A stretch of DNA of 64,000 bases from Alphaproteobacteria bacterium (GTDB taxonomy: Bacteria; Pseudomonadota; Alphaproteobacteria; SP197): contig OZ219918.1 of assembly GCA_964291415.2 (NCBI GenBank), forward strand, positions 448,001 through 512,000, read 5' to 3'. Position numbers and translations under genes: made by a program. Shown here piece by piece: positions 13,772 to 32,356 of the stretch (within the stretch, counting starts at the first letter, position 1; each line of letters opens with the position of its first letter). The notes beneath the pieces were generated by a model. That model did no database searches, was not told the origin of the DNA, and saw nothing but the letters and a program-made list of their open reading frames with translations.

Positions 13772-14118
13772 GCCTTCATTGTACGGTCGGAACACGCTGA
13801 ACCATCGTTCCATTGGTCTTTCCGGTTCTCGGAGTAGCACCAGCGTGTGTCGGGCCGAACGACAAAGATCGGTTGCAAGGCCGCCCGATCGTTCATTGCT
13901 GAGGTCGGCGTCGGGTGCCTTTGTGTTGGCAGGCGAGTGTCAATCCGTCGTGACGAGGCTCAACACTGGTAGATGCTTGTCGCAAGGCAACGACTTGACA
14001 GGGTCGGGTCCCGATTGAACTTCGGTCACGGGCTGCGCGGGCACCGATGGAAGACGGCGCCCGCCATGTCCGTCAGCAGCTGATGTTTCCTGTCCGGGCT
14101 GGCCATTCAATCAGCGTC

Positions 14119-14985
14119 TCAGAGGATCTCCATCGGTGCCTGGGGTACCTCCTTCCAGAAATCGGGGTCGTGACCGGGGAATATTCGGGCGCCCCTGGCT
14201 CGCATTCGGCGCAGAAGCAGCAGCGAGTCCAGCATCTGCGAACGATCGTGGACCAGCTTCGGCAAATGAAGTTCCTCCAGGGTCTGACGGAAGTAGCAAG
14301 CGTCTGCCGCGAGCACGATGTCACCCGCTTCCAGACGAACCATGAGCGACTGGTGACCGGGAGTGTGACCGAAGGTAGGGATCGTCACCACAGTGCCATC
14401 GCCGAAGACATCATGCTCCCCGTGGACCTGGTGAACCAGGTGACCGTGGTCGTAGTCCTGCAGGTTGTAGGCATTGGCTTCCATAAGTTCGGGCGTATGG
14501 CCTGCCTCCCATTCCCTTTGCTGGATAATGACCTTGGCGTTGGGGATGAGTTCGTTGCCGCCGGAATGATCGAAGTGCAGGTGGCTGTTCACAACGTACG
14601 CAATCTGTTTGGGATCGATCTCGAGCTGATTGAGGCGCGAAGCGATGTCCTCACCGGGCCGGAAGTGAATGTCGAAGAACTTCGCCAGAGCACCGATACG
14701 GCCATGTGGGTCGTGTCCACTTTCGGGATGCAGGCCAGTGTCGAACAGAACATATCCTTTGGGGTGCTGGATCAGGTAGGTCGGGATGGGAAAGCGGATC
14801 CGACCCGACTCGCGTGCAAGCATCATGGAGACGTCAGCGCTGAGCCAGCCGCAGGTCATCGCATAGAGCTTGACAGCGGACGAATGACTCGACGAGCGCG
14901 CAACTGCGGTCGAGCGGGCCCCCTTCAGCGTCTCCCACCAGGCCTGGTTGCGCTCCAGGGCGAGCGCGCTCTCACGTGGGTCCAT
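14119..14985 (-). CDS. N-acyl-homoserine lactonase family metallo-beta-lactamase-fold hydrolase
   Basis: LFDTG, SHLHFDHSGG (HxHxDH), GHTPGHQS, DACY as in the AiiA/AttM family. Confidence 0.85.
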   Translation of the reverse strand: MDPRESALALERNQAWWETLKGARSTAVARSSSHSSAVKLYAMTCGWLSADVSMMLARESGRIRFPIPTYLIQHPKGYVLFDTGLHPESGHDPHGRIGALAKFFDIHFRPGEDIASRLNQLEIDPKQIAYVVNSHLHFDHSGGNELIPNAKVIIQQREWEAGHTPELMEANAYNLQDYDHGHLVHQVHGEHDVFGDGTVVTIPTFGHTPGHQSLMVRLEAGDIVLAADACYFRQTLEELHLPKLVHDRSQMLDSLLLLRRMRARGARIFPGHDPDFWKEVPQAPMEIL

Positions 14986-17002
14986 GGCGCGTTCCGCTTG
15001 TTGTCATAGTGTCTATCCCGTCCGCGGCGCGGGGAATTCCGCCGGTCGCTGCCGAGTCCTCGGTGAGCGCAACAACCTTCTTGGTCGTCGAGGTCGAGAG
15101 TTCCATCCTGTAAGCGAGAAGCCAAATGAGAAGAACGCCCAGCCCCCACCATAAAAGCTGCCAGGCCCAGATGGAGGGCATCCGGAAATCCCAGCCCCCG
15201 TAGCCTGTGTCCGGCGCGCCAAACAGATAGTTGCCAATAACGATGCATGGCCCGACCGCGAAGAACAACCAAATCATCGTTGCGACCCAGGCGAAGGTGA
15301 CGAAGCGCCGCCTTCGCGCGGAGAGGCCGGCGTACTCCGCCAGGAAGCGGTGAATGCGGTAGCGACCCTCTGCACCGTCATCATCGCGTGTCAGGACCGA
15401 ACCAAGAATGCAGACAAGAAGATTGGCGACGAGACCCCAGGCAGCGGCATGGATGGTCCAGGGCCATTGACCCCAGGGCAGTGTGCCGCGAGTGAGCGCC
15501 TGTCCCAGCGGATCGGTCAGAACTACGACAATGGAGCCCACCACAATGCCGGCCGCAACGCCTTGCCGGGTGAACCAGCGGACCCACGCGACGCCCAGCA
15601 GCGCGGGCCAGAGCTGCACAGCGAGCGCCAGAGCCAGCCCGCCGAGCACGACCATGCCGTCGCGCTCGAGAGTTGCCATGAGAAGCGCGGCGACCGTGGC
15701 CAGCAGAGTCGCCACCCGGGCGAAGCGTTTCTGGAGCCGATCGTCGGCATGGGGATTGAAAAAGCGCATGTAGAGATCACGGGTGACGAGTGCGCCGGCA
15801 CTCGCCATGTAGGCGCCGCCTGCGGCCTTGATTGCGGCGATCATGCATACGGTCACGATGCCGAGAAGCCAGGGAGCAGACGCGCCGACAAGGTCGATCA
15901 GGTTCGCGACCAGCCTACCCTCCTCGCCGTTGTCGAGCGGTGGAAGAACGCGTTTCAGTTCCAGGCCTGCGGCGTTGACCTCCGGACTCGCACCTAGCAA
16001 AAGCCCGCCGAGACCCTGCAGTGTGACGAAAACGAAGAGAAGCACTCCCGCCGCACATGCCGACGCCCAGACCTGCTGCGGTGCGAAGGCGCCAGGATCC
16101 CGGCTGGCGAAGGCCCACATGGAGAACGCCGGTGATGCCTGGATGCCCATCAGGGCGACCATGAAGCTCATCACCATGAGACTGGTCCAGGGACCTCCCT
16201 GGGGCACCTCCTTGTTGAGCCCGTCGCTCCATTGCACCACGCCAGGTGTGGCGAACAACCCGTTGAAGTCGCCACCGCCATAGCCCAGTGTCGTTCCCCA
16301 TGGGCCTGTGGGTGTGCTTGCGATCACAGCCAAAGCCCTGTTGAGCGGGTCGAATCCGCCCACGAGATCAAGCGTCACAAGCCCCAGGATGCTGACGCCG
16401 ACAGCGATCAGCAGAGTTTGCAGTGTCGTGACGTACGCCACGGCTCGAAGTCCGCCGAGCGTCACGTAGATGACCAGGACGACGGCAAGGGTCCACATTG
16501 CCAAGTCGCGCGAGAGCAGGCCACCGGTTACGAGACTTATGAGGCCCCCTGCGAAGCCGAACAGCATACCGAGAAACGGGACGGCAAACAGAAGGGCGAC
16601 GATGACTGTGAACACACGGATGATATCGGAGCCGTAGTAGGCCGCGAACATCTCGCCTGGTGTGACGAAACCAAATCGCTTGCCGAGTATCCACTGCCGC
16701 TTGAGGAAGATCACCCCCGTCAGCGGCACGACGACAGCAGCGAATGCGATGTAGCCTGCCTGAAGGCCATCGCGCAGAATTAACGCGGGTCCGCCGATGA
16801 AGAGCCACCCGGCGAACGAGGTCGCCGTGGCCGCCATGACGAAAACCCAGGTGTTGAGACTGCGCCCGGCGACGAAGTAGGCGCTGGCAGTCTTGGCCTC
16901 GCGCGCACCCCTGACTCCCCAGAAAACGCAGTAGCTCCAATAAAGCACGGCGAAGAGGCCAAGCCAAAGCAGTCTCGACCCGTAGAGGCCGCCGTCGGTC
17001 AC
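14972..17002 (-). CDS. sodium:solute symporter (SSS) family transporter
   Basis: YFVAGRSL..W, ATSFAGW.FIGGP, GFVTPGE, YVTLGGLRAVAY; many TMs; start overlaps the LacI stop. Confidence 0.9.
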   Translation of the reverse strand: MTDGGLYGSRLLWLGLFAVLYWSYCVFWGVRGAREAKTASAYFVAGRSLNTWVFVMAATATSFAGWLFIGGPALILRDGLQAGYIAFAAVVVPLTGVIFLKRQWILGKRFGFVTPGEMFAAYYGSDIIRVFTVIVALLFAVPFLGMLFGFAGGLISLVTGGLLSRDLAMWTLAVVLVIYVTLGGLRAVAYVTTLQTLLIAVGVSILGLVTLDLVGGFDPLNRALAVIASTPTGPWGTTLGYGGGDFNGLFATPGVVQWSDGLNKEVPQGGPWTSLMVMSFMVALMGIQASPAFSMWAFASRDPGAFAPQQVWASACAAGVLLFVFVTLQGLGGLLLGASPEVNAAGLELKRVLPPLDNGEEGRLVANLIDLVGASAPWLLGIVTVCMIAAIKAAGGAYMASAGALVTRDLYMRFFNPHADDRLQKRFARVATLLATVAALLMATLERDGMVVLGGLALALAVQLWPALLGVAWVRWFTRQGVAAGIVVGSIVVVLTDPLGQALTRGTLPWGQWPWTIHAAAWGLVANLLVCILGSVLTRDDDGAEGRYRIHRFLAEYAGLSARRRRFVTFAWVATMIWLFFAVGPCIVIGNYLFGAPDTGYGGWDFRMPSIWAWQLLWWGLGVLLIWLLAYRMELSTSTTKKVVALTEDSAATGGIPRAADGIDTMTTSGTRHGPT

Positions 17003-18051
17003 CGGACCATCGCCCCCGCACGCCGGTCGCGATGCGTGTTGCGCGGGATCATTTCGCCTGCAATAGAGCGGTGAACAGGTGCCATGTCGGGATTGTCGTC
17101 GATTTCGCGGATCAACCTTACGGTCTCGGCCGCCATCCGCCGCATCGGATGACGATAGGTGGTCAGCGCATGGGAAGGCCAGCCAGCCATGGCAACGTCA
17201 TCGAATCCGACGACGGAGATGTCACGGGGTACGTCGCGCTTCAGTCCGTGACGCAGTGCATCAACTGTGCCAAAGGCGACGATGTCGTTGGCGCAGAATA
17301 TTGCGTCCAGATCGGGGACGGCGCGGATCAGGCGACAGGCCGCTGCATATCCGTCCTCGTAGGAGAACACCTCGGGAAGGTTGTCCCTGACGATCGTGAG
17401 GCCCGCCTCCGCGCAGCGCTCGACGAAGCCGCTGCCGCGGTCGATCGAGGTTGTCGCGTCGGGCGTACCGGCAATGTAGGCCATGTTGCGGTGGCCGGTT
17501 TCGATGAGGAACTCGGCGATCTCGCGACCGCCCCGCCTGTTGTCGCAGGTCACCGCAAAGGTCTCGGTTTCGGGAATATAGCGGTTGAAGAAGATCAGGT
17601 TGGTTCCGGTATCGATTGTCGCCATGGTGCGCTGGAACGAGACTGTTGCGGTCATGAGGATGATGTACTCGGGCTGATACAGCATGCCCTGTGGCAGCAC
17701 CTCGTCGGTCGTCTTTCCCTCGGGGACGTGAAACAGCATGACTCGGAGGCCGTGTTTTTGAAGTTCGCCGGTCAGGATCGCCATGACCTCTGGAAAGAAC
17801 GGGTTGAAGACGTCCGAGATGAAGATGCTGACGATGCGGGTCTTCTGGGTGATCAGGCTTCGAGCGAAGGGGTTGGGCTGGTATCCCATCGCCTTGGCGC
17901 GTGCGAGGATACGGTCGCGAGTATCCGGGGCGATCTGAGAGTCGGGCGAGAACGCACGCGAGACTGTCGAAATCGACACACCGAGTTCCTCGGCGACGTG
18001 CCGCGCCGCTACCGTCCTGCCGGCTGACTTTGGTTTTCCGGTATTGTCCAT
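16999..18051 (-). CDS. LacI-family transcriptional regulator
   Basis: HTH VAEELGVSISTVSRA, hinge YQPNPFARSL, FCANDIVA, ISVVGFDD. Confidence 0.95.
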   Translation of the reverse strand: MDNTGKPKSAGRTVAARHVAEELGVSISTVSRAFSPDSQIAPDTRDRILARAKAMGYQPNPFARSLITQKTRIVSIFISDVFNPFFPEVMAILTGELQKHGLRVMLFHVPEGKTTDEVLPQGMLYQPEYIILMTATVSFQRTMATIDTGTNLIFFNRYIPETETFAVTCDNRRGGREIAEFLIETGHRNMAYIAGTPDATTSIDRGSGFVERCAEAGLTIVRDNLPEVFSYEDGYAAACRLIRAVPDLDAIFCANDIVAFGTVDALRHGLKRDVPRDISVVGFDDVAMAGWPSHALTTYRHPMRRMAAETVRLIREIDDNPDMAPVHRSIAGEMIPRNTHRDRRAGAMVR

Positions 18052-18172
18052 CGCCCCAGACCCGATCAGCGCTCCTCAGTCACTCTACGCACCGTGCCAA
18101 CACTTCCTCCACCCCGCTCCGTGGAAAACAGCTTACTGATACGGATCACGATTGATTGAGCGTATGCCTGGC

Positions 18173-18242
18173 TGCAAACCTTTGCAAGACGCAAGATACC
18201 ATGTTGCAAAGGTTTGCATTGCCATTGTATCCAATCTAGGCT
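18173..18242 (+). promoter_or_regulatory. two LacI-type operators and a sigma70-like promoter for the ABC-opsin-flotillin operon
   Basis: TGCAAACCTTTGCA (18173-18186) and TGCAAAGGTTTGCA (18205-18218) are near-palindromes and reverse complements of each other. TTGCAT (18214-18219), 17 nt, TAGGCT (18237-18242) overlaps operator 2. Confidence 0.72.
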
Positions 18243-18369
18243 CGTCTCGGGCGAGCAGGGTTCAAGGCTTGTCGTCTGCCGATTCTGAGGGGTTAAGGCC
18301 TGACGCAGGACGGGGAGGCGCGACTGGCTGGCCCAGGTTCATGTTCATACACATTGGGAGGTTAAGGTA

Positions 18370-19542
18370 GTGACACAACTAACGAGAACCGCGGCCGCAC
18401 TGGCCGTCAGTCTGAGTGTCGGGACGGGTGCCGCATTGGCGGAAGGTCTCGACGAATTGCCGGAAGAGATAGTCGCCCGGACCTACAGCTCGGAAATGAT
18501 CGATCCGGCCCAGCCGGTCGAGGCAAGTATCTACCGTGACTGGAAATCACCAAGCGAACCGCCCTGGACGATCGGTTACGCCAGTTCCTATGCCGGTAAC
18601 ACCTGGCGGGCGGCCGTCATGGATCGGCTGATCCAGAGCATTCTGCCCAAGTGGCAGGAACTGGGATTGGTGGACGACGTCTTTGTCACCCAGTCCAACC
18701 TGAACGATTCGGTGCAGATCCAGCAGATGCGCCAGCTTGTTGATCAGGGTGTGGACGCGATCATCGTCTGCTGCTCGAACCCGACAGCACTCAATGCAAC
18801 GGTCAAGTATGCATATGAGCGAGGTGTGCCGACCTTCTCGTTCACCGGTTACCTGACATCACCCTATGCCGTGAACTCGTCAGTGAACTATCAGCTGGCC
18901 GGTTTCGAGATCGGCAAGTGGATGGCCGAAGAGGTTGGCGGTGAAGGAAGCATCCTTGTGGTCGAGGGCATTCCTGGCACTTCCGGTTCTGACTCGCAGC
19001 ACCGCGGCGTCCTGCTCGGTCTCGAGTCATACCCCGACATCGACATTGTCGGCGAGATCGCGGGCATGTGGACAGACCAGGTCGCCCAGGGTGAGGTTCA
19101 GAAGTGGTTGTCCACCAACCCTGGCCAGCTTGACGGCATCGTCGTGCAGTCGGCTGCGGAGATGGGCGTGTTGCGGGCCCTGCAACAATCGGGCCGGGAG
19201 ATGGTTCCTGTGGCGATTGGCGGCGAGCTCGGCGCCCTTTGCTACTGGCGCAAGAACCCTGGCTACATCAGCACGACCTTCCAGGTCTGGCCTCCCGGTG
19301 ATGATTTCGAGCTGATCTGGAACATCATGATGCGGACGCTTCAGGGTCAGGGCCCGAGGGTGCAGTCAATTCTCGTGGATCCATTCGAGTTCACTTATTC
19401 GGATCTCGAGGGTGTCCTCGACGAGAACTGCGACGAGAACTCCCAGCTGTGGCTCGAGGTCGGGCCTGCGGCCTGGGGTGCCGAAGACTATCTCGACCAG
19501 TTCTTCCTGCGTCCCGCAGATCCGACCCAGTACCAGCCCTGA
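18370..19542 (+). CDS. sugar-type ABC transporter substrate-binding protein (RbsB-like)
   Basis: Signal peptide (ALA-E), GNTWR, QIQQMRQLVDQGVDAII, EGIPG; GGGAGG SD before GTG. Confidence 0.9.
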   Translation: MTQLTRTAAALAVSLSVGTGAALAEGLDELPEEIVARTYSSEMIDPAQPVEASIYRDWKSPSEPPWTIGYASSYAGNTWRAAVMDRLIQSILPKWQELGLVDDVFVTQSNLNDSVQIQQMRQLVDQGVDAIIVCCSNPTALNATVKYAYERGVPTFSFTGYLTSPYAVNSSVNYQLAGFEIGKWMAEEVGGEGSILVVEGIPGTSGSDSQHRGVLLGLESYPDIDIVGEIAGMWTDQVAQGEVQKWLSTNPGQLDGIVVQSAAEMGVLRALQQSGREMVPVAIGGELGALCYWRKNPGYISTTFQVWPPGDDFELIWNIMMRTLQGQGPRVQSILVDPFEFTYSDLEGVLDENCDENSQLWLEVGPAAWGAEDYLDQFFLRPADPTQYQP

Positions 19543-19584
19543 TCGGGCCGGTTTCGACTGAGGCCGTTTGACTCCGGATCGCTG

Positions 19585-21402
19585 ATGCCTTCCGAAGAAA
19601 CCGTGAGTTCCCAACAGGAGCTCCCCGGCGCCGCCGACCAGATGTCGGCGGCGCCGGCTTTCGTCGATGCGGATATTGTTGTGACCAATGTGCACAAGAC
19701 GTTCGGCGTCACGCGCGCGCTCGACGGAGTTTCCTTCAGTGCACGATGCGGCGAGATTCACGCTATCGTGGGTGGCAACGGTTGCGGCAAATCAACTCTG
19801 GCCAAGGTCATTTCGGGCGTCCTTCCCATCGACAGCGGTCAGGTGTCGGTTCTGGGACATGCACCCGGCAGCCCGCGCGAAGCGCGTCTGGCAGGCATCG
19901 CGACGGTCTTCCAGGAAGTTCTGGTGGCTGACCATCTGACGGTGCTCGACAATCTGTATGTCGGCGCTGACGGTCTCTGGTCCAAATCCCTGTCGTTCCG
20001 CGAAAAGTATGCAAGGGGCGAAGCCTTGATGCGTGACCTCAGCGGGGTTGATATCGACCCTGACGAGATCGTCGGTGGCTTGTCGCTGTCGATCAAGCAG
20101 TGGATCACCATCGGCCGCGCATTGATACAGGAACCCCGCGTCCTCATCCTCGATGAGTCCTCTGCAGCCCTCGATTTCGATTCGACCGAGAAGCTCTTCG
20201 AGAAGATGCGCGAACTGCGCGACAAGGGCGCCGCCGTGCTCATCGTGACCCATCGCATTGCCGAGCTGATTCGCGTATCCGACCGCGCCACGGTGCTGCG
20301 TGACGGGCGCGACGTTGGTGTACTGGCCAAGGAGGAAGTGACCGAACAGAACCTCTTGGGCCTGATGACCGGGAGGAGCCAGTCCACCGAGAGCGACGCC
20401 ACCAACTCGGTGGCGCCGGCCCGCGACGACACCGTGATGAGTGTACGTGGGCTCAAGGTTTGGGAAGGCAGCAAGGGTATCGACTTCGATCTCCACCGTG
20501 GCGAGGTGGTGGGTGTCGCCGGACTCGACGGGCAGGGCCAGGATGAGTTCGTGCGCGTGCTCGCCGGCGTCCAGCCCGCACTCGAAGGCGTACCCCTGGT
20601 GCGCAGTGGGCCCGGCAATCTGGCCGAGCTTCACGGACTTGAGGACGCTGATCGATTCCGTGTCGCCTACGTCTCGGGCGATCGCAAGCAGGAGGGAATC
20701 TTCCCCAACCTCTCGGTTTTCGAGAACCTTGCAATCGCGCTCTATCCCAGGGAACTGAAGACGCGCTTCGGCAATGTTATCGACTGGCCTTCACTGGCCA
20801 GCGTGTTCGAAAACTGGCGCCAGAAGCTCTCCATCAAGATCGGTTTGGCGTCCGACAAGGTCACATCGCTGTCGGGCGGCAATCAGCAGAAGGTGCTGAT
20901 CGGTCGCGCGATGGCCCTCAACCCGAGAATCCTTGTGCTCAACGACCCGGCGCGCGGCATCGACGTTGAGGCCAAGCGCGAACTTTATGATCATCTGCGC
21001 GACTTTGCCGCCCGAGGCGAATCCGTGGTCTTCATGTCGAGCGAACTTGAGGAGTTCATTGGACTTTGCACGCGCGTGATCGTGTTCCGTCATGGCGAGA
21101 TCTTCGACGCGTTCGCTGGCGACGACATCGAGCCGGCGCGCCTCCTCGAGGCCATGTTCGGCCAGACCTCCGGTCGTGGGGCCCGCCTTGCCGCGGGCGC
21201 GGATTCGGGACCAGCCGTTGTGGACAGTGATCCTGTGCCAGAGTCCGAGCGGGAAGCGCCGCGCAGGCAACATCGACCTCGGCCAGATGCAATCCGGATC
21301 ATTGACTTCGATGCCGAACGCAGGGAGCACCGCAGTCAGGGTGCAGTGGACACTCGGCAACCTGCGGAAAAGCGCATGAAGATAGTCTATTCGGACGGCT
21401 GA
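19585..21402 (+). CDS. CUT2 sugar ABC ATPase (two NBDs) with a disordered, motif-bearing C-terminal tail
   Basis: Walker A GGNGCGKS, ILDES, VTH; second NBD GLDGQGQ, LSGGNQQK, LNDP; about 80 extra residues after LLEAMFG; start uncertain (19585/19642). Confidence 0.9.
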   Translation: MPSEETVSSQQELPGAADQMSAAPAFVDADIVVTNVHKTFGVTRALDGVSFSARCGEIHAIVGGNGCGKSTLAKVISGVLPIDSGQVSVLGHAPGSPREARLAGIATVFQEVLVADHLTVLDNLYVGADGLWSKSLSFREKYARGEALMRDLSGVDIDPDEIVGGLSLSIKQWITIGRALIQEPRVLILDESSAALDFDSTEKLFEKMRELRDKGAAVLIVTHRIAELIRVSDRATVLRDGRDVGVLAKEEVTEQNLLGLMTGRSQSTESDATNSVAPARDDTVMSVRGLKVWEGSKGIDFDLHRGEVVGVAGLDGQGQDEFVRVLAGVQPALEGVPLVRSGPGNLAELHGLEDADRFRVAYVSGDRKQEGIFPNLSVFENLAIALYPRELKTRFGNVIDWPSLASVFENWRQKLSIKIGLASDKVTSLSGGNQQKVLIGRAMALNPRILVLNDPARGIDVEAKRELYDHLRDFAARGESVVFMSSELEEFIGLCTRVIVFRHGEIFDAFAGDDIEPARLLEAMFGQTSGRGARLAAGADSGPAVVDSDPVPESEREAPRRQHRPRPDAIRIIDFDAERREHRSQGAVDTRQPAEKRMKIVYSDG

Positions 21403-21413
21403 GGGCGGGAGCG

Positions 21414-21770
21414 ATGGAAATGAAGCGCATGAAGATCGTGGAGTTTGATGACGAGGGAAGGCCGGTCGAACGGCAGGGACCGACTGCATCTCCGCGCGTG
21501 ACGTCGGAATGCAGCGGGCCGGTCAGGATCGTGGCCTTTGGTGATGAACCCGAGGACAACCTCGGCGTGGAGACTGCACCGGACGCGCCGAAGATAAAGA
21601 TCAGGGAGTTTGATGGCGCTGGCGCGCCGAGACCGGCGGGTGAGCCAATGCGCTTTCGTATCCCGTCGGAAAAGAGCATCAGGGTTGTCGAGTTCGATGA
21701 CGACGGCAAGCCCAGGCGGCGCGAGAATGGTTCGGGTGCGCGTGGCATCAAGATTGTCGAGTTTGACTGA
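21414..21770 (+). CDS. small protein of five [IMV][KR][IV]xxF[DG] repeats; may be the frameshifted tail of the ATPase
   Basis: MKIVEFD, VRIVAFG, IKIREFD, IRVVEFD, IKIVEFD-stop; GGGAG lies 8 nt before the ATG at 21420. Confidence 0.7.
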   Translation: MEMKRMKIVEFDDEGRPVERQGPTASPRVTSECSGPVRIVAFGDEPEDNLGVETAPDAPKIKIREFDGAGAPRPAGEPMRFRIPSEKSIRVVEFDDDGKPRRRENGSGARGIKIVEFD

Positions 21771-21821
21771 GCATCTGCCTTCCGGCCGGCGGGAAGGAAT
21801 GCGGAAAAGGGAAGGGCGAGC

Positions 21822-24044
21822 ATGAGCGAAACCGACGTCAGACGTCCGTCCTCGTCGGCCCATTCGTTTCTCATGGTGCCGATCATTCTGCTGTTCGTGC
21901 TGATCGTGGTCGCCGTACTCAGAAGTCCCAGTCTGGTAACGGGGCCGGGTCTGGGCAGCGCTGTCATTGTCGCTGCGCCGCTGATCCTGGCGACCTACGC
22001 GCTGACTGTTATCGTGATGGCGGGCCGTGGCGGCGTCGATCTTTCGATAGGACCGCTCATCGGTTTCATCAACGTCACCATGATTCAGCTTCATGCGGTC
22101 GGGGTCGTGACGTCGGTGGTCGATGTTTTCCTGTACGCGATTGCCGTGGGCATCGCCTATCAGCTGATCATGGGACTGATCATCTGTTACGTGCGGATTC
22201 AGCCCATTATCGTGGCGCTGGCAGGCTTTCTGACACTTGCGGGGCTCAATCTCGTCATACTGCCGCGGCCAGGCGGAGTCGCACCGCAGTGGATGAGTTC
22301 CTGGGCTCTGGGCGAGTCGATCTGGACACCTGTGCTGGCGATTCTCGCCGTCGCGACTGCCGCTTGGTTCCTGTTCACGCGCACCGCCTTTTTCAACCAT
22401 CTGCGCATCATGGGCGCGGACGAGAGAACTGCCTACACAGCGGGCGTCAACATCGTCGTCGTGCGGCTGGGCGCACATGTCGTCGCGGGAGTCTATGCCG
22501 GACTTGCGGCAATCTGTTTCACGTCGTTGATCAGTTCCGGAGACCCGACTCAGGGCAGCACCTATACGCTGATGGCCGTGACAGCGCTCGTTCTGGGCGG
22601 CACGAGCCTGGCCGGCGGACGCGGCAGTATCATCGGATCGCTGTTGGGGGCGCTGAACATCTATCTCATCACCTATGTGCTCGCGACGTTCAACTTCGGC
22701 ATGGTGCAGAGCTTTGTCACCCAGCTCGCCTATGGCGTGATTCTGGTTGTTGCCTTGCTGCTCACGATTCTTCTTCCACAGATCCAGCGCGCCATGCGTT
22801 ACGTGTCGCCCTATGTCGTGTTCGCTTTCCTCGGTCTCACCGCCGCCGGAGCGATGCTCTATGCCCAGGACGTCGTGCTCGAGACCGTTGGAACGTCGCT
22901 CGCCGGGACCTCGCTGAGCGGCCAGTCGCTCAGCGGGCAGTCTCTCAGTGGAACCTCGTTGAGTGGCACGTCCCTGACGACTCAGGCCGAAGCGCCTGCC
23001 GATCCTACCGGTACACCCATCGTCGTCGCGGCGGTGGTGATCGCTGCAGCGGTTTACCTTATCTGGCTGCTTTACAGGCATCTGAATTTCGCGACCGTCG
23101 CTCTGATTGGCGTCGTTTCACTAATCGTATTGGGCTATGCGGTCCATGATGGAGGCATACCCGAGCAGCGCTCCGTGGAGATGGTCGGCAACTGGGCGAT
23201 GGAAAAGGCACAGACCCCGTTCGTACTAGGTGCCGAGAAGCCACCTGAACCGGCAGTGCAGGTGCTGTCATTCGAGGAGTCACCGCTTTTCGGTGCGGCA
23301 CTGGCGGGTGCCGGGACGCTGGTTCTCGGCACCATTCTGATCTTCACGACGGTGCCACAGATACAGCAGCGGAGGGTCGGTGAAAACTCGCTGCTTTTCA
23401 TGTCTGTCGTCGGCTTGATCATAGCCGCGGGATTGATCTACTGGCTGCAGGATGGCGCTGGAGCAAGCAAGCTGTTCGCGGGTGCGCTCGGTGCGCTGGT
23501 TGTAGGCGCCATGCTTTTCGTGGTGACGCTCCCCCGGTTCCAGGACCGCATCCGGAACATCACCATGGTGATGGTGACGCTGATTGCGCTCGTGGCGCTG
23601 ATCAGCACGTTCCTTGCAAATGTTCCGCCCCTGTCGACGAGTCCTGTGCCGCTGTTGACCGCAGCGGCTCCTGAACCTCTGGAAGCGGCCGCACTGTCAA
23701 ACGGCTTTTTCCTTGCAGTCGTACTGCTTCTTGTCGCGGGCGTGACCCTCTATCTTCTGGTGATTCCGGGCGTGCGTCGCCACGTCATGTCGAACGTGCC
23801 GCTTGGCGCAGGGATCCGTTCCTACTCCTACACCACGTTGTTTGTTTCGGTCAGCGCCACGGCCTTCGCTTGTGCGGTGCTGATGGTTGCAGGTGCGCCG
23901 TTGTGGAAAGTCGTGGTCGCCGCACTTGCCGTGCTGATAGCAACCAAGTTCGGTTACCACTTCTTGCGTGATTACCGGCGCAGGCGCCCAACCGTGCCTC
24001 GTCTCAAGACACCGCGAGCCCTTCGGGTGTCGAGGAGGGTCTGA
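21822..24044 (+). CDS. sugar ABC permease (RbsC-like core) with a ~400-aa multi-TM C-terminal extension
   Basis: GVDLSIG, IQPIIVAL, GADERTAYTAG, LGGTSLAGGRGS core, then SLSG(T/Q) repeats and many extra hydrophobic segments. Confidence 0.88.
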   Translation: MSETDVRRPSSSAHSFLMVPIILLFVLIVVAVLRSPSLVTGPGLGSAVIVAAPLILATYALTVIVMAGRGGVDLSIGPLIGFINVTMIQLHAVGVVTSVVDVFLYAIAVGIAYQLIMGLIICYVRIQPIIVALAGFLTLAGLNLVILPRPGGVAPQWMSSWALGESIWTPVLAILAVATAAWFLFTRTAFFNHLRIMGADERTAYTAGVNIVVVRLGAHVVAGVYAGLAAICFTSLISSGDPTQGSTYTLMAVTALVLGGTSLAGGRGSIIGSLLGALNIYLITYVLATFNFGMVQSFVTQLAYGVILVVALLLTILLPQIQRAMRYVSPYVVFAFLGLTAAGAMLYAQDVVLETVGTSLAGTSLSGQSLSGQSLSGTSLSGTSLTTQAEAPADPTGTPIVVAAVVIAAAVYLIWLLYRHLNFATVALIGVVSLIVLGYAVHDGGIPEQRSVEMVGNWAMEKAQTPFVLGAEKPPEPAVQVLSFEESPLFGAALAGAGTLVLGTILIFTTVPQIQQRRVGENSLLFMSVVGLIIAAGLIYWLQDGAGASKLFAGALGALVVGAMLFVVTLPRFQDRIRNITMVMVTLIALVALISTFLANVPPLSTSPVPLLTAAAPEPLEAAALSNGFFLAVVLLLVAGVTLYLLVIPGVRRHVMSNVPLGAGIRSYSYTTLFVSVSATAFACAVLMVAGAPLWKVVVAALAVLIATKFGYHFLRDYRRRRPTVPRLKTPRALRVSRRV
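22890..22979 (+). repeat. in-frame 15-bp imperfect tandem repeat encoding G(T/Q)SL(S/A) x6
   Basis: GTSLA-GTSLS-GQSLS-GQSLS-GTSLS-GTSLT with synonymous codon variation. Confidence 0.9.
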
Positions 24045-25468
24045 TGAAGCCCACACAGCACCGCTTCTACAAGTGGCTCGGGTTCCTCTTCGCGCTCCTG
24101 GTTGCCGGCGGCAGCGTGATTCTCGGAATCGTCGAGGAGATTGAAGCCCAGTACATTCTGTTCTCGGCGATCGCCACCTTCGCCATCGTGCTGTGGGCTT
24201 GGCATCACTTCTCGGTCCGCTGGGTCTACGATCTCGACGGCATGGCGCTCGATAGCATGAGCCGGGAGAATCGGGGATCGTCGGAAGAGCCGTCCGAAGT
24301 GCCGCATCACGAGCAAAGCACGGGCCGCTACGTGCGATTCCTCGCGCTCGAATACAAGCACATCATCATCGGTTTCCTGATTTTGCTTGGGTTGTTCCTG
24401 ATTGTCGCCTTCTCGGTGGAGGATTTCTGGACCTGGAACAACATCATCGCTTCTGTCGTCGTGGCGGTGTTCATCGGCATCGCCTTCATGCTCAATCGAA
24501 CGGTCTCCGAGAACTCGTCAGCCTTCATCGGCGTCACGGTCCTGCTTGGTCTTTTCATTGTCGGCTCGCTTGTCGTCGACGGCTTCTTCTCGGCGATCAA
24601 CATCAAGTCAATGCTGGTCTTTGCATCCTTTCTCGGGCTTGCATGCGTCGGTCAGACACTTGTTGTCCTGCTGGGTGGGCTGGATCTCTCGATTCCCTTC
24701 GTCATCGGTTCAGCCAACGTAGCGTTGCTCTATCTCCTGGGGCTCGGCGTGCCGTCCTGGTTCGCGGTGATCGCGATCCTGATCCTCGGGGCCATCATCG
24801 GGGTCATCAACGGCCTCCTCAGTTTTCGACTGCAGGGCCAGGCACTGATCGTCACGCTCGGTGTGGGCTTTGCGGTCGCAGGTGGCACGCAGATTCTGAC
24901 AAGCATCGGTACACGCTATTCGGGCAACGTCTTCGGCGTGGTGCCCGAGTGGCTCACCAATATCGCAGCGATGAATGGACGCACCTTCGGGCTCGACTTT
25001 CCGCCGGTGATCGTGATCTGGATCGCTGCGGCAATCTTGCTCACCATCGCGATGCGCAACACGGTCTTTGGGCGCAGGCTCTATGCGCTGGGTGGCAGCC
25101 GCAGAGCGGCCAGGCGTCTATCGATCTCGGAGCGCAATTACTGGATTGCGGTCTACGGAGCATCGGGCTGCATCGCGGCGATGACTGGAGCCCTGCTGCT
25201 GGGCTGGTCGGGTGGCGGCTTCATCGGTGTCGGGGATCCTTACCTCTTCATGACACTTGCTGCTGTGGTGATTGGTGGCACCTCGCTCCTGGGCGGCTGG
25301 GGCGGTTATGGCTTCACCGTAATCGGTGTGCTCGTACTGCAGGTGCTGTCGTCCTTTCTGGTCGGCATCGGCCTGTCCTTCGAGGGCCAGCAGTTCGTTT
25401 TCGGCCTGCTGATCCTGCCCATGGTCGCCATGTATGCCCGCTCGCCGCACATTCGAACACAGATCTGA
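24044..25468 (+). CDS. second sugar ABC permease with an N-terminal extension
   Basis: GQTLVVLLGGLDLS, GRRLYALG, AAVVIGGTSLLGG; about 160-aa extra N-terminus. Confidence 0.9.
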   Translation: MKPTQHRFYKWLGFLFALLVAGGSVILGIVEEIEAQYILFSAIATFAIVLWAWHHFSVRWVYDLDGMALDSMSRENRGSSEEPSEVPHHEQSTGRYVRFLALEYKHIIIGFLILLGLFLIVAFSVEDFWTWNNIIASVVVAVFIGIAFMLNRTVSENSSAFIGVTVLLGLFIVGSLVVDGFFSAINIKSMLVFASFLGLACVGQTLVVLLGGLDLSIPFVIGSANVALLYLLGLGVPSWFAVIAILILGAIIGVINGLLSFRLQGQALIVTLGVGFAVAGGTQILTSIGTRYSGNVFGVVPEWLTNIAAMNGRTFGLDFPPVIVIWIAAAILLTIAMRNTVFGRRLYALGGSRRAARRLSISERNYWIAVYGASGCIAAMTGALLLGWSGGGFIGVGDPYLFMTLAAVVIGGTSLLGGWGGYGFTVIGVLVLQVLSSFLVGIGLSFEGQQFVFGLLILPMVAMYARSPHIRTQI

Positions 25469-25513
25469 ACGAGGCAGGTATGACATCAGGACGCCCTATC
25501 GAGGAACGACACC

Positions 25514-26236
25514 ATGAGTGAGATGCTGCAACCAAATGACATCGTCGGCATGTCATTCTGGCTCATGACCCTCGCCATGGCGGGTGCGGCAGCATTCTTC
25601 CTGCTGGAGCGTCGTCGCGTGGAGCGCCGCTGGCAGGCGGCGCTGACCACGCTCGGCGTCGCCATGCTGGTCTCGGCACTGAGCTATGTGAATCTCGCGG
25701 GCGTCTGGGCAGGCAAGGGCGAAGTGTCGACGATTTACCGTTTCGCCGAGTGGCAGCTGACGGTGCCGCTCCTTACAGTGACCTTCTACCTGGTGCTGTG
25801 TGCGGTGACGAAGGTTCCAGCAGCATTGTTCTGGCGCCTTCTGGTGGCCTCGGGTGTACTCACGGCTGCGGGTTACCTCGGTTCGGCGGGCTTCGTCAGC
25901 CCAACACTGGGCTTCCTCGTTGCGCTCGCCGGCGGTCTCTACATCCTGGGCGAAATCTACCTTGGCGAGGCGGGAAGGCTCAATGCCAACAGCGGCAATC
26001 AGAAGGCCCAGACCGCGTTCAGCGCGATGCGCCTTATCGCAACCATCGGCTGGGCGATCTATCCGCTGGGCTACTTCATGGAGTACCTGGGCGGCGGCGT
26101 CGACAATGAAGCGATCAATCTGATCTACAACCTCGCTGATTTTCTCAACAAGCTCGCATTTGGCCTCATCGTCTGGCAGGCCGCGGCGAACGACAGGGAA
26201 GCGGACGGAAATCGCTCGCCGCTGTCAGGCGCATGA
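25514..26236 (+). CDS. proteorhodopsin-like microbial rhodopsin, flotillin-associated type, ETT motif
   Basis: Seven hydrophobic segments; VGMSFW, helix C YRFAEWQLTVPLLTVTFY, helix F GWAIYPLGY, helix G IYNLADFLNK with retinal Lys213. Confidence 0.93.
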   Translation: MSEMLQPNDIVGMSFWLMTLAMAGAAAFFLLERRRVERRWQAALTTLGVAMLVSALSYVNLAGVWAGKGEVSTIYRFAEWQLTVPLLTVTFYLVLCAVTKVPAALFWRLLVASGVLTAAGYLGSAGFVSPTLGFLVALAGGLYILGEIYLGEAGRLNANSGNQKAQTAFSAMRLIATIGWAIYPLGYFMEYLGGGVDNEAINLIYNLADFLNKLAFGLIVWQAAANDREADGNRSPLSGA

Positions 26237-26297
26237 GCGGACAAAGAAACAAGAGATCCGTGAACCGCGATGTGGGGCGCAGAAGGGGAGTTGAAGC

Positions 26298-28361
26298 ATG
26301 ACCGGAGCTGACATCATCACCACGATCCTGCTTGCAGGCATCCTGATCGCGGTCATCGTCTACCTGCTGTACTGGCTGTACCGGCGCTCGTCCAAGGAAG
26401 TCGCCTTCGTGCGCACAGGCCTGGGTGGCGAAAGGGTCGTCATAACCGGTGGTGCGCTTGTGCTGCCCATCGTCCACAACGTGACGCTGGTGGGAATGAA
26501 CACGTTGCGTCTGGAGGTCAGGCGGGACGGCGATCAGGCACTCATCACCAAGAACCGGATGCGCATTGACGTGGTGGCCGAGTTCACCGTGCGCGTGCGG
26601 TCTGACCCGGAGGCCGTGTCGTTGGCAGCCCAGACGCTGGGACGGCGATCCATGAGTGCCGATGATGTCAAGGAGGTTGTCCAGGGTCGTTTCGTTGATG
26701 CCCTTGCAAGCGTTGCCGCCCGGATGACCATGGACGACATCCAGGAGAACCGTGACGTCTACATGAAGGATGTCCGGGCAATCATCGAGGAGAGCGTGGC
26801 GCGCAACGGACTGGAAATCGAGGCCGTGTCGCTCACCGGCCTCGACCAGACCAGCATCGAACGGTTCAATCCGTCAAACGCCTTTGACGCCGAAGGTCTG
26901 ACCCGACTGACCGAACAGATCGAAACACGCAAGAAGGCCAGAAATGACATAGAACAGGACACGATGGTTGCGATTCGGTCGAAGAACCTCGAGGCCGAAG
27001 TCGAGGCGCTCGAAATTGACCGCAAGAGCGAATACGCGCGGCTCGAACAGGAACGCGAGGTCGCAAAGCAGCGGGCTTTGGAGAAAGCACAGATCACGAT
27101 GGAACGGGCTGCCCGGGACCGGGAGGCTCAAGAGGCGGAGATTCGCGCCGAAGAGGAAGTCGAGATTGCCCGCATTCAGCGTGAAAAGGCCCTGGAGGCC
27201 GAGCGGTCCTTGCGTGAGACGACGCTGACGGAGGAGATCGAGGCCCGGCGCAAGCACCGCAACGACGTGGAGCGCGACACCCAGATTGCGATCCGCGCGA
27301 AGGACCGTCAGGCGGAAGTGGAGATCCTGGAGATCGAGAAGGAGATCGAATTCGCAAGGCTCGGTCAGCAAGAAGCCATTGCCGGACAGCGCGCAACGCA
27401 GATGGCCGAGATTGCCAGGCGTCAGTCGAGTGGCGAGCAGGAAGCGGAGACCGCTCGCATTGCCGCGCTGGAGGCCATTGAGCGCGCTCGCATTCTTCAG
27501 GAAAGAGCGGTGGAGTCCGAGCGCATCGCGCGCAATCAGGAAGTCGATCGCCTGGAGGTGCTGCGCCGCAAGGTTCTGCAACTCGAGGAGCAGGAGCGCG
27601 CCATTGCCATCACACGCAAGGAGAAGGACAAGGCCGAGGCGCAGGCCGAAACCGAGGAGGCCCGCGCCCGGGCCGTCGAAGCCGAGGAGAAAGTCGCCTC
27701 GGCGCGGGAGCGGGAGGCTGCTGAGCGACGCAAGCTCGTCGAACTCATCGAGGCTGCTCGTGCGGTCGAGAGCGAAGCGCTCCAGCTCACCACCATTGCC
27801 GCGGCGCAGACCAACGCAGCTGAACAGAAGGCTGCGGCCGACCGTTTCGCCACACTGTCGGAGAAGCTGCGTTACGAAGTCGATGCCGAGGGCAGGCGTG
27901 CCCTCAACGAGGCGGAGAACATCCGCACCGATGACAACCGTGAACATGCTCTGCGCATGAAGCTTCTGGAGCACATCGAGGGCATCGTGCGTGAGAGCGT
28001 CAAGCCGCTGGAGAACATCGACTCCATCAAGATCCTTCAGGTCGACGGCGTACCGGGCGTCAACAGTCCGTCGGACGTTGGCCGCGGCGGAGCCGGTTCC
28101 GGTGATCCCGCCTCTGGTGGGGGCAGCATGACCGACCGCATCGTGAATTCGGCCATGAAGTATCGCACTCAGGCGGCATTCGTAGACGGCTTGATGAAGG
28201 ACCTGGGACTGCCGATGGAGCACCTCGGCAGCGCGGGTGGCCTGTCCTTCCGCAACTTTGCTGAAGCACCTCCCGAGGATGTCGCGGACGGTAAGCCGGG
28301 TGGAGACCATACCGACGACGATAACGTCGAGGACAGCGGGCCATCAGACGACGACAAATAG
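26298..28361 (+). CDS. flotillin / SPFH (band 7) family protein
   Basis: N-terminal TM, AFVRTGLGG, LITKNRMRIDV, NAFDAEGL, long Ala/Glu coiled coil, ESVKPLENIDSIKILQV. Confidence 0.93.
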   Translation: MTGADIITTILLAGILIAVIVYLLYWLYRRSSKEVAFVRTGLGGERVVITGGALVLPIVHNVTLVGMNTLRLEVRRDGDQALITKNRMRIDVVAEFTVRVRSDPEAVSLAAQTLGRRSMSADDVKEVVQGRFVDALASVAARMTMDDIQENRDVYMKDVRAIIEESVARNGLEIEAVSLTGLDQTSIERFNPSNAFDAEGLTRLTEQIETRKKARNDIEQDTMVAIRSKNLEAEVEALEIDRKSEYARLEQEREVAKQRALEKAQITMERAARDREAQEAEIRAEEEVEIARIQREKALEAERSLRETTLTEEIEARRKHRNDVERDTQIAIRAKDRQAEVEILEIEKEIEFARLGQQEAIAGQRATQMAEIARRQSSGEQEAETARIAALEAIERARILQERAVESERIARNQEVDRLEVLRRKVLQLEEQERAIAITRKEKDKAEAQAETEEARARAVEAEEKVASAREREAAERRKLVELIEAARAVESEALQLTTIAAAQTNAAEQKAAADRFATLSEKLRYEVDAEGRRALNEAENIRTDDNREHALRMKLLEHIEGIVRESVKPLENIDSIKILQVDGVPGVNSPSDVGRGGAGSGDPASGGGSMTDRIVNSAMKYRTQAAFVDGLMKDLGLPMEHLGSAGGLSFRNFAEAPPEDVADGKPGGDHTDDDNVEDSGPSDDDK

Positions 28362-28406
28362 ACGACCAGCGCAGGCGGAACGTCACTGACTTAAGGGGAC
28401 TGGGAC

Positions 28407-28796
28407 ATGAGTATCGATGTCAACAGCTGGGCAGCCAAGTACAAGCAGCTCACCAATGCTGACGAAACCATTCAATGCATGGGAAGGTATTACACCTGTA
28501 CGTTCATGTTCGACATGGGCACACGGAAGGTCATCGTCGAAATGCACGATGGCAAGGTGAAGGGCATCAACACGAACCCGGCGCCGATGGATCCCTACGA
28601 TTTTGCCTTGCGCGCCAGTCCTGAGACCTGGCGCGAGTTTGCCCAGCCGATGCCCAAGCCAATGTATCACGGCATCTTTTCGGCGAGCTTCCAGCGTGAC
28701 CTCAAACTCGAGGGCAATTTGCTGGTGTTGATGCAGAACCTGAGGAATTTCACCGTGCAGTTCGAGTTGCTGCGCCAGTCCGGCGTCCCGGTCTAG
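28407..28796 (+). CDS. SCP2 sterol/lipid-carrier-like small protein
   Basis: DFALRASPETW and LKLEGNLLVLMQNL resemble SCP2-domain C-termini; size 129 aa. Confidence 0.6.
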   Translation: MSIDVNSWAAKYKQLTNADETIQCMGRYYTCTFMFDMGTRKVIVEMHDGKVKGINTNPAPMDPYDFALRASPETWREFAQPMPKPMYHGIFSASFQRDLKLEGNLLVLMQNLRNFTVQFELLRQSGVPV

Positions 28797-28848
28797 GCCG
28801 GTCGCCACTACGCCACGAAACACGAACGCCAAGTCGAGGGCAACAACC

Positions 28849-29700
28849 ATGGTCAAGCATTCTCCGGTCACCGGCCGCTACGTCACGATCGAAGTTGACG
28901 GCAACGAGTACAAAGTCTTCTACCTGCACAATGGCACCGGACAGCCGCTGATTTGTCAGCACACGGCGGGTGCTCACAATCATCAATGGCGTGGCCTTCT
29001 GGAGGACGAGGAGATCACCCGGGACTACAACGTGATTGCCTACGACCTGCCGCGTCACGGCAAGTCGGATCCGCCGCACAACAAGGAGTGGTGGAAAGAT
29101 GAGTACCGCCTGACGGCTGACCACTACGTCAACTTCATCGTCACGTTATGCGACGCACTTGAACTCAAGGAACCGATCTTCATGGGGTCGTCCTTCGGCG
29201 GCAACGTGGCGCTGCAGCTTGCGCTGAGGCGGCCGGACCGTTTCAAGGCGGTGATTCCCGTTGAGGCAGCCGACTATGCGCCTGGCTTCTTTCTCGATTG
29301 GTGGCGCCATCCGCACGCCAACGCCGCCCAGGTCTGCGCCTCGGGAGTGTGGGACTTGATGGCCCCGCAATCCCCGGACATGGACCGATGGCTCACTTGG
29401 CACTACTACACGCAGGGTTCGGAGGCCTTCAAAGGCGATCTCTACTTCTATTCGGTCGACCACGACCTGCGTGACGAGCTTGTCAACATCGACGGGAGGC
29501 GGTGCCCTGTCATCATGATGACGGGGACATACGATTACCTGACGCCCCCCGAGGCAACCGAGAATACCGCGCGCCAGATCAAGGGCGGCGTCTACATTGA
29601 AATGGAGGACATCGGGCATTTTCCCATGAGCGAGAATCATGAACTGTTCCGTGTCTATCTCAAGGAGGCGCTGCGCATCATCAGGGAGCGCAAAGGCTGA
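28849..29700 (+). CDS. alpha/beta-fold hydrolase
   Basis: QHTAG oxyanion region, DLPRHGKS, nucleophile GSSFGG, G.YDY, GHFP. Confidence 0.9.
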   Translation: MVKHSPVTGRYVTIEVDGNEYKVFYLHNGTGQPLICQHTAGAHNHQWRGLLEDEEITRDYNVIAYDLPRHGKSDPPHNKEWWKDEYRLTADHYVNFIVTLCDALELKEPIFMGSSFGGNVALQLALRRPDRFKAVIPVEAADYAPGFFLDWWRHPHANAAQVCASGVWDLMAPQSPDMDRWLTWHYYTQGSEAFKGDLYFYSVDHDLRDELVNIDGRRCPVIMMTGTYDYLTPPEATENTARQIKGGVYIEMEDIGHFPMSENHELFRVYLKEALRIIRERKG

Positions 29701-31771: not shown

Positions 31772-31838
31772 GTTCCCGGAGGGTGTTTCACCAGCGACAC
31801 TCGTCCATGAGGGCGCAGGTTCCGCCACGCCCTTTCAG

Positions 31839-32321: not shown

Positions 32322-32325
32322 GGTC

Positions 32326-32356
32326 TTGACCTCAAGTTTACTTGAAGTTTTAGCAT
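32326..32356 (+). promoter_or_regulatory. SoxR-activated promoter with sox box
   Basis: -35 TTGACC (32326-32331), 19-bp spacer, -10 TAGCAT (32351-32356); dyad CCTCAAGTTTACTTGAAG (32330-32347) close to the canonical CCTCAAGTTAACTTGAGG. Confidence 0.88.

Follow-up and report, generated by a model that had tools for sequence, protein, structure and literature searches.

A flotillin-associated rhodopsin embedded in an extended CUT2 importer cluster: a candidate substrate-induced uptake module in which retinal is probably dispensable

This article concerns a cluster of genes in which a flotillin-associated rhodopsin (FAR) and a long flotillin are embedded among the genes of an ATP-binding cassette (ABC) importer. 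The cluster lies in a 64,000-nt stretch of DNA, called here the window, from an Alphaproteobacteria bacterium (GTDB SP197; assembly GCA_964291415.2, contig OZ219918.1, positions 448,001–512,000 of the forward strand). Judged by its genes, it belongs to an already described type of FAR cluster; what we add is the embedding of opsin and flotillin in a specific, extended importer of the CUT2 type. The gene set travels together across Alphaproteobacteria, Gammaproteobacteria and the classic marine FAR clusters. On balance we lean towards reading it, from its sequence, as a substrate-induced uptake and processing module in which opsin and flotillin would act as membrane partners and retinal is probably not needed.

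FArhodopsins are abundant in SAR11, HIMB59 and Pseudothioglobus. No function is assigned to them in the accessible portions of the literature that names them, where papers other than the 2023 cluster description and the 2025 PsFAR structure preprint mention them just in passing; assistance to proteorhodopsin is the only published idea of what they are for. A cultured HIMB59-clade isolate, LSUCC0245, is reported to have 'possible rhodopsin homologs', with no function predicted for them (bioRxiv 10.1101/2023.02.22.529538). The value of the present cluster is that it narrows what FARs can be doing.

A gene set that stays together

We followed the cluster through 25 loci, drawn from species-representative genomes in which a relative of the opsin is encoded, and searched each with all of the window's proteins (tblastn). 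Their source records name Alphaproteobacteria, Rhodospirillaceae, Kiloniellaceae, Gammaproteobacteria and Ectothiorhodospiraceae. Twenty of these genome loci are long enough to hold the whole cluster, and all 20 have the same order: binding protein, ATPase, permeases 1 and 2, opsin, flotillin, SCP2-like protein and hydrolase. In the other five, which are short or truncated, those parts that fall within the sequence are kept. A 118-residue repeat open reading frame (ORF) was missed by tblastn in seven of the 20 and proved to be present in each on reading the frames. Alongside these we placed the classic FAR loci, 80 metagenome loci of H84/E120 FARs with a GC content of 0.34–0.49, of which 59 have at least 2 kb upstream and 71 were scored downstream. 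A flotillin gene lies directly downstream of the opsin gene in 25 of 25 genome loci and in 70 of 71 classic ones (the gap is 61 nt in the window). Directly before the opsin in the 59 classic loci comes the binding protein (39 loci), the long permease 2 (18) or neither (two). The first-pass annotation of this DNA had set its own refuting test beforehand, namely that opsin–flotillin homologues should rarely sit beside such an ABC cluster. They sit beside it in 20 of 20 genome loci and 57 of 59 classic loci.

Conservation is very uneven. In the distant loci the hydrolase is 91–94% identical to that of the window, the SCP2-like protein 77–81%, the binding protein about 70%, the opsin 61–68%, the flotillin about 60% and LacI about 48%. 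On one 4-kb contig (L015, 867–1291) the opsin is followed by just the N-terminal 115 residues of the flotillin, running straight into the C-terminal 29 of the hydrolase, which looks like an internal deletion of the cluster or a misassembly.

A second, deeply diverged version of the cluster (type 2; L110, G025:C1:2486000-2504000) occurs in G018, G021, G024 and G025, two of which also carry the first type. Its order is binding protein, ABC ATPase with a C-terminal PEBP fusion, SCP2-like protein (29% identical), hydrolase (45%), permeases, opsin and flotillin, with the SCP2-like and hydrolase genes adjoining that of the ATPase. The PEBP (phosphatidylethanolamine-binding) domain takes the place of the motif-bearing tail of the window's ATPase, the second permease has an N-terminal extension, and the flotillin, of 731 residues, is followed by a 736-residue protein of no family. 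The parts are 29–45% identical to those of the window; the opsin is 32% identical and has L213, H84 and A79. That the parts list survives such divergence makes type 2 the strongest case for these proteins acting together.

The importer and its extensions

The transporter answers to the description of a CUT2 importer: its binding protein is of the Peripla_BP_4 family, its ATPase is a fused double ABC protein and its two permeases are both of the BPD_transp_2 family. Like Rbs, Xyl, Ytf and Lsr, it combines one binding protein, a fused ATPase, two permeases and a LacI-family repressor. Unlike them, it has permeases with about 390 and 185 extra membrane-segment residues, an ATPase with a motif-bearing tail, and an operon that holds a motif-repeat ORF, an opsin and a flotillin. 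Among solved structures the binding protein comes closest to CUT2 binders of sugars or polyols, namely 4rs3, 5hko and 4rsm (E about 1e-22), and the ATPase scores about 340 bits, below cut-off, with models of the ribose, xylose and galactofuranose type.

Permease 1 begins with a CUT2 core (residues 1–350) and continues into a C-terminal extension of about 390 residues with some nine hydrophobic segments and a short SLSG repeat; compared with the distant loci, the core is 67–69% identical and the whole protein 46–48%. The membrane extension of permease 2 is N-terminal and 185 residues long. The tail of the ATPase, of about 75 residues, contains two KIVEFD-like motifs, the second at its very end. 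The first-pass annotation had credited the ATPase, both permeases and the flotillin with extra repeated segments. The motifs of the ATPase tail, a duplication in the flotillin and the SLSG repeat of permease 1 bear this out; the extension of permease 2 has no detectable repeat. It had also asked whether the extensions co-occur, and that of permease 2 does keep strictly to such opsins. In a survey of 33 genomes of the window's order, including 23 of its genus, the permease 2 extension was found at 11 places in nine genomes, each adjoining a FAR-type opsin of type 1 or type 2 and never away from one. A gene for the symporter is found in most of the related genome loci and in classic FAR loci. 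Long open frames in G020 had the look of a permease–opsin fusion; the two are read in separate frames and a stop codon intervenes, so the fusion was discarded.

LacI and transcription

LacI-family repressors recognize operators whose consensus is a palindrome of the TGNAAACGTTTNCA type. The divergent region between lacI and the binding-protein gene, 318 nt long, contains two perfect 14-bp palindromes, as had been claimed from the first look at this DNA, against 0.02 matches expected; none of 100 shuffled versions had two. All 15 LacI-bearing loci have the palindrome TGCAAACG(A/T)TTGCA, exact or nearly so, in the stretch from lacI to the binding-protein gene, and a second operator site is also found in L003–L006 and L010. 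A LacI match is present in 15 of the 20 genome loci whose upstream region is visible. Of the five without one (L009, L014, L018, L023 and L024), four lack the palindrome and L009 has a copy with one mismatch; LacI control is therefore not a property of the whole system. The earlier claim of such control holds for the LacI-bearing loci, where the operator is kept throughout, and has to be narrowed to a lineage. A LacI-family gene with two palindromes is what a LacI-repressed operon would look like, repression and binding being predicted, and for this lineage's cluster LacI control, as predicted from the conserved operators, is well supported. Gammaproteobacterial loci have an aminotransferase gene as their upstream neighbour. 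All NCBIfam equivalog scores of the LacI protein fall below cut-off.

The ORF list and the Pfam and NCBIfam scans on which our gene map is based confirm the arrangement first described, nine co-oriented ORFs (18370–29700) divergent from the genes for LacI, the SSF symporter and the lactonase. Gaps between the plus-strand genes, from binding protein to hydrolase, are 42, 11, 51, −1, 45, 61, 45 and 52 nt, and the genes of the minus-strand trio overlap by 14 and 4 nt. A consensus scan of the gaps before and after the opsin gene found no terminator-like and no promoter-like site, which agrees with the supposition that no separate promoter or terminator lies ahead of this gene. Nor did these gaps contain a stable hairpin (folding z-scores of −0.1 to +1.5 against shuffles). 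Ahead of the opsin gene there is a Shine–Dalgarno-like GAGGA, ahead of the flotillin gene a similar GGGGAG, and an Rfam scan of 13000–32000 gave no match at E ≤0.1.

Sequencing reads provide a weak hint of expression. We examined four of 24 listed runs, one of them RNA (X15), and the parts left uncovered carry no meaning. Runs labelled as sponge metagenomes yielded pieces that match the window at 0–1 mismatches. The sponge metatranscriptome library (X15) yielded three short contigs, again with 0–1 mismatches, on permease 2 and flotillin.

The opsin and the question of retinal

The best solved relative of the opsin is PsFAR (9r21/9r23), with E about 1e-80 and 277 bits over an ungapped match of residues 2–230; proteorhodopsins reach at most 215 bits (E 1e-62 or weaker). 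The key residues of the window opsin are S54, S57, R76, E79, T83, V84, T90, G120, W180, Y183, P184, D209 and K213. PsFAR (9r21, and the double mutant 9r23) likewise has S54, R76, T83, D209, K213 and no carboxylate donor at position 90. The two differ at H84 (V84 in the window opsin), E120 (G120), D79 (E79) and F57 (S57). Of the marks of a FAR, then, the opsin has S54 and a noncarboxylate residue, T90, at position 90. Of the marks of a proton pump it has neither the DTE motif (its residues are E79/T83/T90) nor the helix-B histidine, with Ser at 57.

The remaining mark of a FAR is an aromatic residue at position 84, said to occur in all FARs according to the accessible part of a preprint (bioRxiv 10.1101/2025.04.29.651185). 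Our opsin, with V84 and G120, lacks it. In a quick tree of 120 rows (119 relatives come from the first protein search), 42 rows with H or Q at 84 fall on one side of a branch with a Shimodaira–Hasegawa-like approximate likelihood ratio (SH-aLRT) support of 100, and 77, the window among them, fall on the other. Throughout this sister clade of the H84 FARs position 84 is a small residue (V, A, L, I or T), and because it is not aromatic across the 77 rows the window opsin is set apart within the FARs. Placement relative to true pumps is weakly tested, with one clear DTE pump in the tree (P0012).

Does such an opsin need retinal? The same preprint, in the part available, reports that the pocket of PsFAR is filled by H84 and E120 and binds no retinal, making the solved FAR example retinal-free, and that only the H84V/E120G form binds it, absorbing at 498 nm, without pumping and nearly bistable. 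Among the 119 relatives of our opsin, 21 have lost the Schiff-base lysine to R or V, all in the sister clade and through at least two independent losses, and L008 is a complete syntenic cluster with R213. A search for Blh (PF15461) found no match in this genome and was positive in six of 151 genomes of the class; for lycopene cyclase the genome gave only FAD-motif matches and no true enzyme. R213 in L008, L213 in the type-2 opsin and a genome without Blh together make retinal probably dispensable for the system. The window opsin itself may still bind it.

An RPE65-family carotenoid oxygenase gene lies outside the window (G000:C2:979039-980369) in two overlapping frames. The split may reflect a frameshift, a misassembly or a gene that is broken, and this is the only candidate retinal route found. 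The opsin of L026 (10001–10680) matches residues 1–199 only, differs at 209 and 213, and may be decaying.

The comparison with Rh-noK rhodopsins cuts both ways. Relatives of the window opsin have lost the Schiff-base lysine, and type 2 has L in its place, as in Rh-noK; the window opsin keeps it. Rh-noK, moreover, adjoins a functional proteorhodopsin and not a flotillin and importer, as cited in the accessible text of PMC10308929.

Relation to the published clusters

The first-pass annotation knew of no characterization of the full architecture. That does not stand: a FAR gene cluster was described in 2023 (PMC10308929, Haro-Moreno et al. 2023). The text available describes an accessory cluster of about 26 kb, with the opsin followed by a 1,977-bp flotillin gene, and lists a sterol-carrier-domain gene, an 'inner membrane translocator', a sodium symporter and alpha/beta hydrolases; the hosts are Pelagibacterales, HIMB59 and Pseudothioglobus. 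ABC, LacI, periplasmic, lactonase and sponge have no mention in its main text, the supplementary gene table being outside that check.

The likeness is close. Both clusters have the opsin and then a long flotillin (about 660–690 residues), an SCP2-like protein, an alpha/beta hydrolase, a translocator (the BPD_transp_2 permeases) and a symporter, and both are accessory islands missing from close relatives. Two of our classic loci, L105 and L108, fit the description of the HIMB59/SAR11 FAR cluster: both have LamB_YcsF and biotin carboxylase genes, L105 also has a carboxyltransferase and a DNI/F84 opsin, and both share the core genes of the window. Unlike the published cluster, the window adds LacI with its operators and an N-acyl-homoserine lactone (AHL) lactonase-like gene, and it has no biotin-carboxylase or PxpA genes. 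The hosts differ too. Ours has a large genome (4.4 Mb, 64.5% GC, in 5 contigs with a marker-gene completeness of 100%), matches in sponge metagenomes and no proteorhodopsin, the one PF01036 match being the FAR itself.

Weighing the explanations

In the account we lean towards, the nine genes would be read as one transcript, which LacI would keep off until a small polar ligand (a sugar, a polyol or something lactone-like) arrives. The extended CUT2-type importer would then take up that ligand, and the hydrolase and the lactonase would process it. Opsin and flotillin would be nonphotochemical membrane partners, organizing the membrane patch where the extended importer is at work.

Several observations weigh against this account. 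Assembly of opsin and flotillin with the importer through the accessory domains, as the first-pass annotation supposed, stays a conjecture. No RNA contig from X15 bridges any gene junction, and the contigs could be carried-over DNA. Of the supposed promoter with paired operators we found the operators, but a sigma-70-like consensus scan placed no promoter in the divergent region, and the operators are some 150–200 nt from the start of the binding-protein gene. There are also the five of 20 loci that have no LacI match. Transporter, regulator and enzyme matches all lie below curated equivalog cut-offs, and with every equivalog score there the substrate class of the importer is not assignable. 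Finally, the opsin keeps K213, D209, R76, W180, Y183 and P184 along with V84 and G120, residues that permit retinal, which leaves room for a light-dependent role, and the genome has its RPE65-family gene, in two frames.

These last points lead to the rival that we take most seriously, unlikely as we judge it: that the opsin binds retinal and serves as a slow-cycling light sensor, through which light would gate the flotillin patch or the importer, integrating substrate and light. V84 and G120 are the very residues of H84V/E120G, the sole PsFAR form to bind retinal; all 77 rows of the sister clade share a small residue at 84; and T90, where a pump has its proton donor, suits a nonpump. Retinal could be self-made, by way of the RPE65-family product, or come from the surroundings. 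Yet neither Blh nor lycopene cyclase was found in a genome of full marker-gene completeness, two frames are needed to read the RPE65-family gene, and Pfam and NCBIfam scans of the island turned up no transducer gene. Arginine replaces K213 in L008 with the same full cluster around it, and the lysine has been lost at least twice with the context unchanged. At any rate, a natural V84/G120 FAR and its lysine-less close relatives make up a set in which the importance of retinal could be probed.

The published idea is a heterocomplex of FAR and proteorhodopsin, tuned for dim light, with a flotillin raft bringing both together; it was proposed in a study in which, by its accessible text, a proteorhodopsin was present in each single-cell genome with a FAR (PMC10308929). 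We consider it highly improbable here, and for this organism it is already contradicted, unless an unassembled proteorhodopsin gene exists. In an assembly of 100% marker-gene completeness the FAR is the only rhodopsin gene. Of the seven FAR-bearing genomes of the genus, five gave no second rhodopsin match, and two gave one that proved to be the type-2 opsin without the lysine. The near-identical DNA in sponge-metagenome runs does not suit a plankton setting either. A FAR system in a large-genome host without proteorhodopsin therefore argues against the helper idea. It would also be improbable, if less so, that opsin and flotillin are a selfish or independent two-gene unit lodged by chance in an ABC operon. 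In its favour, the RNA contigs bridge no gene junction, and in many low-GC loci the ATPase and permeases are on the other strand, some kilobases off. The association has nevertheless outlasted rearrangements, class-level divergence and a deep duplication, and in 33 genomes the permease 2 extension is never away from such opsins. Since opsin and flotillin are tied to a specific importer (and, in one lineage, to LacI), ligand screens of the binding protein and the repressor could reveal what the module is for.

Flotillin, hydrolases and substrate

The window flotillin is the only one in its host genome. It has a Band_7 domain (36–183), a Flot domain (507–638), hydrophobic segments at 6–24 and 47–65, and an internal duplication in which residues 202–300 and 308–406 are 49.5% identical (E 2e-32); against the FloT equivalog it scores 29 bits, the cut-off being 700. 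Members of the family occur in 15 of the 33 order genomes, where opsin-linked frames are 666–766 residues long and unlinked ones 552–588. The SCP2-like protein scores 17 bits with PF02036 (cut-off 21.3). Its atlas neighbours, at a score of 0.97, are named 'putative SCP2 domain-containing protein', with no common Pfam family. It is 67–97% identical across 33 loci, and its AlphaFold2 model is poor, with a predicted local distance difference test score (pLDDT) of 56.5.

The alpha/beta hydrolase is the most conserved protein of the cluster, 82–99% identical over 31 loci that include Gammaproteobacteria and low-GC plankton. It has GSSFG, Asp and GH motifs, the signatures of a Ser-Asp-His enzyme. 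Searched as a single sequence against solved structures it finds distant esterases, MCP hydrolases, D14 and an enol-lactonase, at E 1e-10 at best, and its alignment profile gave no match to solved structures at E 1e-10. The AlphaFold2 model is again poor (pLDDT 54.9), with the lid (140–217) unmodelled. The metallo-beta-lactamase-fold (MBL) protein has as its best solved relatives N-acyl-homoserine lactonases (9khq, E 3e-38), which fits the lactone theme of the first-pass annotation. It scores 186 bits with the AttM-family AHL lactonase model, whose cut-off is 390; with AHL lactonases nearest yet the score below that cut-off, we call it lactonase-like and name no substrate. In most of the distant loci the MBL gene directly follows that of the hydrolase.

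A small polar lactone, sugar or polyol-like ligand would be a reasonable guess for the substrate, no more. A hydrophobic ligand would be a guess. Weak matches to a 4-pyridoxolactonase and a 'B6 ABC' brought the vitamin-B6 lactone pathway to mind, which we set aside because scans of the island's proteins gave no dehydrogenase or oxygenase family.

Repeated peptide motifs

The 118-residue ORF is kept in 19 of 19 aligned loci. Its five motifs have invariant motif residues, the linkers between them are charged and vary freely, and the protein ends in a motif. The KIVEFD-like motif, which we call type A, was counted with a fixed pattern and a threshold of at least two copies: 22 of the 24 loci with the SCP2-like protein and hydrolase have it and none of the 10 loci without them, though these loci are related and represent perhaps five lineages on each side. 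The two exceptions with a hydrolase, L104 and L105, have variant type A forms by eye. Loci without the SCP2-like protein and hydrolase have another motif, type B (Y-S/T-x-x-D-x-x-x-F-x-x-L-M), in four copies per tail; it is also found in L031 and L104, and some classic low-GC loci have it in addition to type A. The full list of type B loci is L069, L079, L082, L086, L090–L092, L095, L096, L098, L099, L031 and L104, with the motif in the ATPase tail or an adjacent ORF.

The motifs are found on other proteins as well. In L105 the biotin carboxylase (4697–6205) ends in a 57-residue tail with the same two-motif type A tag as the ATPase, and type-B-like motifs are found in a stretch that extends the N-terminus of the carboxyltransferase (1–819, minus strand). 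The biotin carboxylase of the HIMB59-like FAR cluster L108 (about 1500–2600) has a two-motif tail as in L105. The occurrence of the same tags on the ATPase and on other cluster enzymes would suggest modular tethers. We put forward tentatively, and with more doubt than belief, that FAR clusters may encode a tagged membrane metabolon, the motifs tethering the ATPase and the cluster's enzymes to a shared partner in the opsin–flotillin patch. Such tethering would resemble the loading of cargo by peptides in encapsulins or microcompartments. Because type A keeps to loci with the SCP2-like protein and hydrolase, one of these two is a candidate receptor; flotillin is the other, because IKILQVDG, a conserved strand at its own C-terminal end, is similar to type A. 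A predicted complex of hydrolase, SCP2-like protein and the 118-residue peptide scored zero in both runs and is uninformative in either direction. The conserved motifs and the second cluster suggest specific, testable ways in which the parts could be joined. We rejected the idea that the motif is a genome-wide client tag, a loose KIVEFD pattern having only 10 matches in its own genome, five of them in the 118-residue ORF or the ATPase tail.

The island and its surroundings

The system occupies an accessory island (Table 1). In G027, a FAR-less congener, the sequences matching 10000–13717 (89% identity) and 31312–31768 (85%) of the window are only 154 nt apart, so about 17.6 kb has been inserted in one lineage or deleted in the other. 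The ends of the island showed no direct or inverted flanking repeat of 10 nt or longer. Its GC content is 0.58–0.62 against 0.645 for the genome. In the order-level survey a FAR-type opsin and a 93–99% identical hydrolase occur in the same seven of 33 genomes, all of one genus (seven of 23).

Table 1. Coordinates of the features of the island in the window
Feature	Position	Strand	Remarks
Accessory island, whole system	13720..31310 (ends approximate)	.	about 17.6 kb; flank comparison with G027
MBL-fold lactonase-like hydrolase, 288 residues	14119..14985	-	Lactamase_B, E 4e-22
Sodium:solute symporter, 676 residues	14972..17002	-	SSF, E 5e-31; long C-terminal part
LacI-family repressor, 350 residues	16999..18051	-	LacI HTH and Peripla_BP_3
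LacI-type operator 1, 14-bp palindrome	18173..18186	.	TGCAAACCTTTGCA
LacI-type operator 2	18205..18218	.	TGCAAAGGTTTGCA; exact complement of operator 1, 32 bp apart
Periplasmic substrate-binding protein, CUT2 type, 390 residues	18370..19542	+	Peripla_BP_4, E 4e-36; signal peptide
Fused two-domain ABC ATPase, 605 residues	19585..21402	+	C-terminal tail about 21172–21402
Repeat ORF, 118 residues	21414..21770	+	five KIVEFD-type motifs; no Pfam or NCBIfam match
Permease 1, 740 residues	21822..24044	+	BPD_transp_2 only at residues 49–315; extension 22872–24044
Permease 2, 474 residues	24044..25468	+	BPD_transp_2 at 187–458; N-terminal membrane extension 24044–24598
Flotillin-associated rhodopsin, V84-type, 240 residues	25514..26236	+	Bac_rhodopsin
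Long flotillin, 687 residues	26298..28361	+	Band_7 and Flot; duplicated coiled-coil 26901–27197 / 27219–27515
SCP2-like small protein, 129 residues	28407..28796	+	SCP2, E 0.0067, below cut-off
Alpha/beta hydrolase, 283 residues	28849..29700	+	Abhydrolase_1, E 1e-22
ORF inside island, 370 residues	29888..31000	-	no Pfam or NCBIfam match; kept in the closest loci L003–L006 alone, 65–77% identity

The left border of the island falls at a gene for a 1391-residue TPP-enzyme/POR/DUF6537 oxidoreductase, indolepyruvate:ferredoxin oxidoreductase-like (9596–13771, plus strand), which is conserved in G027. To the right is a gene for a glyoxalase-fold protein (31148–31771, plus strand), the right-hand anchor in common with G027, and beyond it one for a MerR-family regulator (31839–32537, minus strand).

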